Sequence record: PP925829.1
DNA: 47,946 nt
Direction: 5' to 3' (one strand)
Source: Escherichia phage IdasGreatGrand
The position numbers were made by a program, and so were the translations under genes. This document shows, one piece after another, positions 23,144 through 23,604 of the stretch; within the stretch, counting starts at the first letter, position 1, and each line of letters opens with the position of its first letter. Below the pieces are notes generated by a model that was given only the letters and a program-made list of their open reading frames with translations, searched no databases and was not told where the DNA came from.

Positions 23144-23604
23144 GCTTTAGCCCTTCTTAGTAAATAGTGTGTAGGGCGACTGAAGGACCGAGTTTATGCT
23201 TTTTCGCATTGCTTTCAGTTAGTACACCGGTATCGCACCGGAAACAATCCTACGGCAAATTGGTTGTCTGACCTCTCGGTTTTTCGTGCATTAACCGATA
23301 CCCACTACAGTCTCGGCGAAAGCTGCACACCCCCAGGGTGTACTGGTAGCACTCGGCACAGCCTAGCACGCCACTTTCTTCTCACTATCCAGTCTAATTT
23401 TATCCCCTAGTCAGACACTCAGATGTAGTGCTCCGCAGCGGCATGCGGGGGAATACAAAAACTCGGACAAAATTGGGCCCTCCTTTTTGAATCACTCGCG
23501 GGGATGTAGTTATTAATACATGGAAAAAGATCTGTTTTCAAATCCAACATTATATGGTTTCAATACCACGGGGTGGCTATGTGTTTCTCATTGTTATTTG
23601 GAAT

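Follow-up and report, generated by a model that had tools for sequence, protein, structure and literature searches.

The sequence of Escherichia phage IdasGreatGrand (PP925829.1; 47,946 nucleotides (nt), hereafter the window) contains a gap of 461 base pairs (bp) at positions 23144–23604, between an antirepressor-like gene and an open reading frame (ORF) of 118 amino acids (aa), and the question raised by this locus is what such a gap may hold. The initial annotation proposed either a structured non-coding RNA or a decayed pseudogene. The first of these options is supported by covariation among relatives, by a G-U bias that singles out the minus strand, by a promoter-like box and by terminators in many relatives, and it can be stated with high confidence that the gap holds a conserved, folded RNA element read from the minus strand. 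Whether this element acts as an RNA in its own right or as the leader of the gene that follows it is a more delicate matter, and is weighed below.

A conserved block within an ORF-free gap

The window represents a lambdoid prophage or phage with its early-right region on the minus strand, and Escherichia phage Turner and DLP12-related prophages match it at 99.8% identity over 551 bp around the gap. It was verified that 23144–23519 contains no start of an ORF of 60 aa or longer on either strand, the longest ORFs there reaching 48, 43, 39, 34 and 31 aa, and the annotation of the Prokaryotic Genome Annotation Pipeline (PGAP) is empty under the gap in the E. coli genomes among the matches listed. 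The gap was also correctly described as not AT-rich like the other spacers, since its guanine-plus-cytosine (GC) content is 0.462, with 0.511 in the core at 23175–23505 and 0.494 in the whole window, compared with 0.32–0.36 in nearby AT-rich spacers such as 24700–24900. Comparison with relatives delimits the following block:

23505 to 23175, minus strand: conserved structured RNA core of ~331 nt, 5′ AUCCCCGCGAG ... CCAGUCGCC 3′

This block was found as 32 distinct variants in lambdoid prophages of E. coli, Klebsiella, Enterobacter and Obesumbacterium, that is, of four enterobacterial genera, and conservation is confined to it: the core retains 75–100% identity, whereas the flanks differ. The variant set was enlarged by pattern scans of IMG/VR and JGI metagenomes, further variants being reached through homologues of the two commonest downstream proteins, and the nhmmer profile matched the window at 23507–23162 (E = 4.9e-123). 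The gap sequence occurs in 159 of 5,426 complete E. coli genomes (~3%), mostly as a single copy. Klebsiella phage Kp4856-1 and an unrelated E. coli prophage contain diverged copies with 78–83% identity; in both, the similarity starts and stops inside the gap and the flanking genes differ. Copies are also present in genomes of Enterobacter bugandensis and Obesumbacterium proteus. Plasmids gave no match to the block. The exact 18-mer, searched in the GTDB species representatives, yielded 10 matches only, all in unrelated phyla, and these were rejected as homologues, as they corresponded to local profile matches of ~22–37 positions surrounding the motif (nhmmer E 0.004–0.9) or to none.

The fold and its covariation

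The fold was modelled by RNAalifold together with a search of all columns against all others for runs that pair consistently, which resulted in 83 pairs arranged in 15 helices. In the 32-sequence alignment, standard pairs occupy 96.8% of the cells, against 36–44% when the 3′ partners were slid by one to three columns; 24 pairs are changed on both sides, against 2–7 in the slid controls, and the covariation score is 0.249 in the model and about 0.055 when slid. On four of the five measures, none of 500 shuffles equalled the observed value. The covariation analysis across homologous regions that had been suggested for this locus thus revealed compensatory changes, and the best-supported helices are P6, P7, P9, P10 and P13. 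Owing to its frequent G-U pairs, the model is strand-specific: 97.1% of the pairs are standard when read as the minus strand and 86.9% when read as the other.

The RNA is divided into two domains, a 5′ domain closed by AUCCCC/GGGGAU and a multi-branched 3′ domain, which are joined by a kissing contact. The elements of the fold, from the 5′ to the 3′ end of the RNA where possible, are:

23500–23505, minus strand: 5′ strand of helix P1, AUCCCC, which closes the 5′ domain
23425–23430, minus strand: kissing loop CACUAC of the hairpin at 23416–23440, which pairs with GUAGUG at 23303–23308
23402–23407, minus strand: 3′ strand of helix P1, GGGGAU, partner of AUCCCC at 23500–23505
23318–23378, minus strand: branched domain P6–P9, in which the helix GAAAGU/GCUUUC encloses three short hairpins
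23294–23317, minus strand: hairpin P10 of 9 bp, whose loop GUAGUG (23303–23308) is the kissing partner
23275–23280, minus strand: 5′ strand of helix P11, ACCGAG, which pairs with CUCGGU at 23187–23192
23227–23241, minus strand: hairpin P13, CCGGU-GCGAU-ACCGG, the CCGGTGCGATACCGG of the initial annotation
23178–23192, minus strand: 3′ tail CUCGGUCCUUCAGUC, which supplies the 3′ strands of P11 and P5

The kissing helix, a 6-bp loop–loop contact between the loop at 23425–23430 and that of P10, 120 nt apart, is fully paired in all 32 variants, in which it takes four versions (CACUAC/GUAGUG, CACCAC/GUGGUG, CGCAAC/GUUGCG and CAUCAC/GUGAUG). As this contact crosses helix P1, the fold is pseudoknotted. 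P1 itself is 98.4% paired and varies little: in the most diverged sequence, U-A and U-G replace one pair each. In P10, six of the nine pairs are altered on both sides, with as many as five kinds of pair at a single position, while helices 7, 8 and 10 of the P6–P9 domain are 94–100% paired and show three, two and three two-sided pair changes, respectively. P11 is 96.4% paired, and one of its pairs was seen as A-U, G-C, G-U and C-G.

The 3′ tail has more than one possible partner. In the model, it completes P11 and P5, the partner strand of the latter being GACUGG at 23389–23394, and both helices show some covariation. Alternatively, it can pair with the 5′ segment GGAGGG...CCGAGUUU in a 14-bp helix, which competes with P11 and P5 and is 96.9% paired, nearly all of its columns being invariant and thus devoid of covariation power. 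In L113, the most diverged copy among the 32 variants, GGAGG is changed to GGUGG, by which an A·G mismatch in this 14-bp helix becomes a U·G pair. A conformational switch between the 14-bp helix and P11/P5 is possible; a conserved antiterminator directed against the terminator arms was looked for by eye and none was found.

The pairings named in the initial annotation were partly right. Its inverted repeats CCGGTATCGCACCGG (23227–23241), CCAGGGTGTACTGG and CCGCAGCGG are all present, and the hairpin at 23227–23241 is real, its closing pair covarying among A-U (14 variants), U-A (11) and C-G (7). However, CCGCAGCGG as a stem of its own would leave a loop of 1 nt, and it is actually the 5′ strand of a longer hairpin. 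The 7-bp repeat GGTATCG (23229–23235)/CGATACC (23296–23302) exists as well, but its arms are separated by 60 nt and not by about 75, and the proposed long-range pairing GGUAUCG/CGAUACC is perfect in the window's own lineage only, being 60% paired in 17 diverged variants; both arms sit in better-supported local hairpins.

One further copy departs from this picture. At L164:4010–4357 (minus strand), 73 of the 83 pairs are kept, and the mismatches fall in the kissing helix (CCCCAC versus GUGAUG), in P1, P8 and P11, and in the otherwise invariant GGUCAGACAACC box. This looks like a decaying or recombinant copy of the RNA, and suggests that the fold is lost once selection relaxes.

Transcription signals, downstream genes and the nature of the element

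Two boxes ahead of the core resemble the hexamers of a promoter:

23536–23541, minus strand: −35-like hexamer TTGAAA, found in relatives as TTGAAA, TTGAAT or TTGTAT at equal distance
23512–23518, minus strand: −10-like A/T box TATTAAT, 17–18 nt past the −35, as read from the alignments

The −35-like box forms an island of conservation amid diverged upstream sequence, and the −10-like box, which ends about 7 nt ahead of the first conserved base, appears in relatives as TTTAAT or TTAAAT, and in L113 as a better extended −10 (TGnTATATA). Judged by this conservation, the box upstream of the RNA is a probable promoter. At the other end, an intrinsic terminator lies 7–15 nt past the core in five of about nine lineages (in L092, a 7-bp stem followed by T8); these terminators differ in sequence between lineages, and all of them are located outside the conserved block. 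As a separate observation, several lineages, e.g. L063 (AACCATATGTTGTATGGTTGAA), have a partial palindrome, CCATA-N7-TATGG, overlapping the −35-like hexamer; in the window, its counterpart at about 23541–23560 is degenerate. The palindrome could act as an operator through which the RNA promoter is regulated.

The gene next to the core in the window is the following:

22787–23143, minus strand: 118-aa ORF, starting 32 nt past the core; PHROG 12412 (unknown function)

Its start codon is preceded by AAGAAGGG, and neither a terminator nor room for a promoter exists between the core and the ORF; RNA and ORF are probably transcribed together. For the 118-aa protein, a 4-helix bundle is predicted (predicted local distance difference test (pLDDT) score of 74), and a comparison with the PDB gave no significant match, the best being designed helical bundles with E above 0.3. 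Other lineages carry other genes at this point: at least four unrelated families of downstream proteins were found, of 118 aa, 178 aa (with two predicted membrane helices), 183 aa and 95 aa, none with a Pfam or PADLOC match.

For these loci as a whole, the interpretation given here, which is put at even probability, is that of a self-contained prophage RNA whose fold would be the functional entity and which, in this window, would also form the leader of the 118-aa ORF. It is favoured because discrete, sequence-unrelated terminators lie directly past the core, because the cargo genes are unrelated and the RNA persists beside a truncated gene (it is intact at 24 loci in which only 67 aa of the 118-aa gene are matched), because in one case, L055, no cargo gene is present and the RNA and its terminator are followed by an ordinary nin-region gene, and because of the size and the tertiary contact of the element. 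Transcription would start at about 23505 from the conserved −35/−10-like box and, in about half of the lineages, would stop at the intrinsic terminator a few bases past the core, leading to an RNA of ~345–360 nt; in this window, which has no terminator, the RNA would be the 5′ part of a transcript running into the 118-aa ORF. The folded RNA would be the working part, as the long invariant unpaired junctions and the tertiary contact suggest, and would most likely bind a protein or a small ligand instead of functioning as a short antisense RNA. Expression would probably take place from the resident prophage, as for other phage accessory units. It is proposed more tentatively that the element constitutes a new class of autonomous, tertiary-structured, prophage-expressed RNA in Enterobacterales, in which the folded molecule would be the cargo of an accessory unit made of RNA only. 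Its partner would be a protein of the host or of a phage, or a small signalling molecule, and its action would change the physiology of the host or the way in which infections by competing phages end; the variable ORFs would exploit its promoter.

Several observations count against a self-contained RNA or temper the evidence for it. At every locus examined, a same-orientation ORF follows the RNA within about 15–115 nt, and the homologues of the 118-aa protein with at least 69% identity, whether full-length or truncated, all have the RNA where upstream sequence is present. The lineage of the window lacks a terminator, and a free RNA would there need processing. A strict consensus promoter scan does not call the proposed site, because the −10 has no A at position 2 in most variants. 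Concerning the fold, the folding energy of the single window sequence is unremarkable (z = −0.92), and it is the comparison of relatives that supports the structure; helices P1b, P12 and P14 are invariant and so escape the covariation test, and the independent compensatory events are fewer than the cell counts suggest, because the family is narrow (≥75% identity) and its lineages are mosaic.

The first of these points is just as compatible with the explanation that comes next in weight to the one given above, namely a cis-acting leader, i.e. a 5′ untranslated region of riboswitch, attenuator or translation-control type, which would sense a signal and set the expression of the downstream accessory gene through the terminator in some lineages and through access to the ribosome-binding site in others, including the window. 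Although somewhat improbable on balance, it accounts well for the constant presence of a nearby ORF without room for a separate promoter, and riboswitch classes typically include, as here, both variants with a terminator and variants that lead straight into a ribosome-binding site. All 118-aa loci with upstream sequence in viral contigs, Enterobacter and Obesumbacterium carry the RNA, as do 8 of the 10 loci of the 178-aa family, among which a 56%-identical homologue is accompanied by a correspondingly diverged RNA; moreover, the two pairings of the 3′ tail are mutually exclusive. However, the downstream genes, being of at least four unrelated and uncharacterised families, do not form a coherent regulated set, and on inspection no conserved terminator/antiterminator alternative was recognised, the terminators being unrelated and outside the block. 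In L055, the RNA precedes a core nin gene. In addition, a 51%-identical homologue of the 118-aa protein in another context has no RNA, and L114 and L115 (upstream of 1501) encode homologues of the 178-aa protein with 42–44% identity behind ordinary AT-rich upstream sequence with no detectable RNA, so that the linkage between RNA and gene holds only among closer relatives. Finally, the element, with its ~331 nt and its tertiary contact, exceeds the usual size of a leader.

A far less probable explanation is that of a messenger RNA for a micro-peptide, similar to those of type I toxins, in which the following small frame would be translated and would be silenced by a 5′–3′ fold-back until processing:

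23411–23483, minus strand: micro-ORF region with GGAGG at 23479–23483, UUG at 23468–23470 and UGA at 23411–23413; 19 codons (MSEFLYSPACRC...)

The messenger RNAs of the hok type are ~350–400 nt long, heavily folded and often prophage-borne, with a 5′–3′ fold-back that hides the Shine-Dalgarno sequence, and the gap RNA resembles them in size, in folding and in the possible fold-back over its own Shine-Dalgarno-like sequence. This strong GGAGG stands 6–8 nt ahead of the UUG, which is kept in 28 of 28 variants, the stop codon is conserved, and the 14-bp helix described above would hide both GGAGG and codons 2–4. Unlike hok, however, the gap RNA has no conserved hydrophobic toxin ORF. The 19-codon peptide shows no hydrophobic character, its frame is closed by a stop at codon 13 in one clade, and L113 is frameshifted after codon 10, its GGUGG improving the pairing of the 3′ tail at the expense of ribosome binding. 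Substitutions affect the three codon positions equally, and codons 14–15 covary with the distant kissing partner. No match to Sok (RF01794) or to any other antisense Rfam family was found in the gap, nor any conserved antisense promoter by inspection, and ~230 nt of structure past the stop would be left without explanation. The micro-ORF was accordingly rejected as a protein gene, since its frame is not kept, and is probably structural.

Slightly less probable still is an RNA antitoxin of a type III-like toxin–antitoxin or abortive-infection pair with the downstream protein as the toxin. In ToxIN, a type III system, a promoter, an RNA gene, an intrinsic terminator and a protein gene follow one another, and the same order is seen in many relatives of the gap RNA, with the ORF about 25 nt past the terminator. 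The downstream proteins are also small, uncharacterised and variable, like prophage defence cargo, one having two transmembrane segments and one, by eye, an R-x4-H motif. In contrast to ToxIN, the gap RNA has no repeats (Tandem Repeats Finder reported 0 arrays in 23100–23650), and the downstream proteins are related neither to ToxN/AbiQ nor to each other. That a single RNA should neutralise four proteins of unrelated families is unlikely, and the RNA outlasts the truncation of the gene.

The decayed pseudogene of the initial annotation, or an unrecognised protein gene on either strand, was rejected as very improbable. In some relatives, the element is spanned by an open antisense frame of 95–179 aa. 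The longest antisense ORF, of 108 aa in a relative, was used as the query; nevertheless, only one 61-aa fragment was matched among 5.8 billion proteins, with no real relatives, and Pfam gave no match for any small frame of the block. The 134 variable columns are distributed over the three phases as 45/41/48 (p = 0.76), i.e. without codon periodicity, the open frames vary and are broken among lineages, indels of 1 nt and 2 nt are tolerated in the block, and the substitutions track base pairing. Equally improbable is a DNA-level element (a recombination site, a protein-binding array or a single-strand origin), which would fit the location of the block at a junction of lambdoid module exchange, with mosaic boundaries as its edges, but not its strand-specific G-U pairs, the loop–loop contact and multi-branched fold, which are features of RNA, or the promoter-like and terminator signals that bracket it in the matching orientation.

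Known RNAs, the surrounding module and significance

Known families do not account for the element. The Rfam scan that the initial annotation had suggested was negative: none of the 4,227 covariance models of Rfam 15 matched inside 23144–23604, at the gathering level or at E up to 10, and at the latter limit four diverged homologues of the element gave no match either. ARAGORN found 0 transfer RNA or transfer-messenger RNA genes in the whole window, and a literature search, including one by the exact invariant 18-mer, revealed no description of the element; a preprint on prophage Pas small RNAs was discarded as a source, since it concerns other RNAs. The element is rated here as a new RNA family of a known general kind. 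By eye, several further candidates were dropped: a mimic of the E. coli type I-E repeat of clustered regularly interspaced short palindromic repeats (CRISPR; TTTATCCCCGC, GGGGATAAA), as AUAAA is unconserved and the Klebsiella repeats differ; a lambda boxB-like hairpin, AUGC-GAAAAA-GCAU, whose hexaloop is a G-C closed tetraloop in some variants; and a CsrA sponge, five GGA motifs being about what is expected by chance.

In kind, the element is closest to ROOL and GOLLD, two orphan RNAs to which it is not homologous. Large, ‘ornate’ and associated with prophages, these RNAs have unknown function (Weinberg et al. 2017, PMC5737381; 10.1101/2024.12.08.627333). Like them, the gap RNA is carried by prophages, is long for a bacterial non-coding RNA, and has many covarying helices and long conserved junctions. 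Loop–loop contacts are reportedly central to the architecture of ROOL and GOLLD, which measure roughly 580–800 nt. The gap RNA differs from both in its ~331 nt, in showing no match to their Rfam models, in being found only in lambdoid prophages of Enterobacterales, and in having always a same-orientation ORF after it.

Another comparison is offered by phage regulatory RNAs of the C4/IsrK kind (RF01695, RF01394, RF03163), which occur in the same module of the window. Rfam matches were obtained for the C4 antisense RNA at 24260–24345 (minus strand, 72.7 bits) and for isrK and c4-a1b1 at 24370–24442 (minus strand, 60.7 and 40.6 bits), preceded by a promoter-like site at 24480–24451 (minus strand, TTGACG-18-TATATT) and directly upstream of this gene:

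23605–24213, minus strand: antirepressor-like gene with Bro-N (PF02498) and P22AR C-terminal (PF10548) domains, as detected by Pfam

This arrangement looks like an RNA-controlled antirepressor module of the P1/P7 immI type (or the Gifsy-1 isrK type) placed in a lambdoid nin region. However, the C4/IsrK RNAs, at 24260–24442 and 73–86 nt long here, have no similarity to the gap RNA, which occurs in many phages without a C4/IsrK module. The upstream neighbours of the gap RNA vary, including the antirepressor-like gene, a dATP/dGTP pyrophosphohydrolase and others, and the antirepressor-like gene is placed outside the RNA unit because relatives have other genes there. In the closest relatives, phage Turner and E. 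coli FDAARGOS_497 (L001/L002; locus 3506–5467), the upstream gene amounts to a P22AR C-terminal fragment of 107 aa, which follows a serine recombinase of 508 aa (ybcK), whereas the window has the 202-aa Bro-N and P22AR gene in full; in those genomes, the 5′ part of the module appears to have been replaced by the recombinase.

On the minus strand, the order of the region is the replication gene P, accessory genes, the immI-like module, the antirepressor-like gene, the gap and the 118-aa ORF, past which ninB/ybcN (22144–22599), ninE, ybcO, rusA and Q follow. The entire set formed by isrK/C4, the antirepressor gene, the RNA and the 118-aa ORF is flanked by a 108-nt direct repeat (22620–22727 and 24623–24730), whose copies are 86% identical and 2,003 bp apart. 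Each copy contains, on the minus strand, a 10-bp hairpin, GCGCUAAACG...CGUUUAUGCGC, and a terminator-like hairpin, UGCAG...CUGCA, with a U-rich run, and the repeat overlaps a small ylcH-like ORF that lies ahead of ninB. The repeat may correspond to a tR2-like region used as the recombination point when the module was inserted. A complementarity of 23373–23386 to this repeat was dropped, being at chance level and located in a variable helix. The markedly AT-rich stretch at 24700–26100 (GC content 0.32–0.43) carries on the minus strand a 140-aa ORF with predicted membrane segments (24809–25231) and a 164-aa ORF (25610–26104) that clusters with a gene of a relative carrying the annotation ‘type VI secretion system-associated protein TagO’, and looks like separately acquired accessory cargo.

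E. coli and the lambdoid phages are among the best-studied genetic systems, and the element, although present in ~3% of complete E. coli genomes, is absent from Rfam. A long RNA with a compensated tertiary contact combines features that are usual in RNAs acting through their folded shape. Since phage Turner has been isolated and carries the element, the system is experimentally accessible, and the conserved block can be used as a marker for a cargo slot in Enterobacterales prophages. If the element acts as a free RNA, an RNA-based accessory function would be added to those of lambdoid phages; if it acts as a leader, it would represent a new sensor placed over a set of uncharacterised prophage cargo genes.

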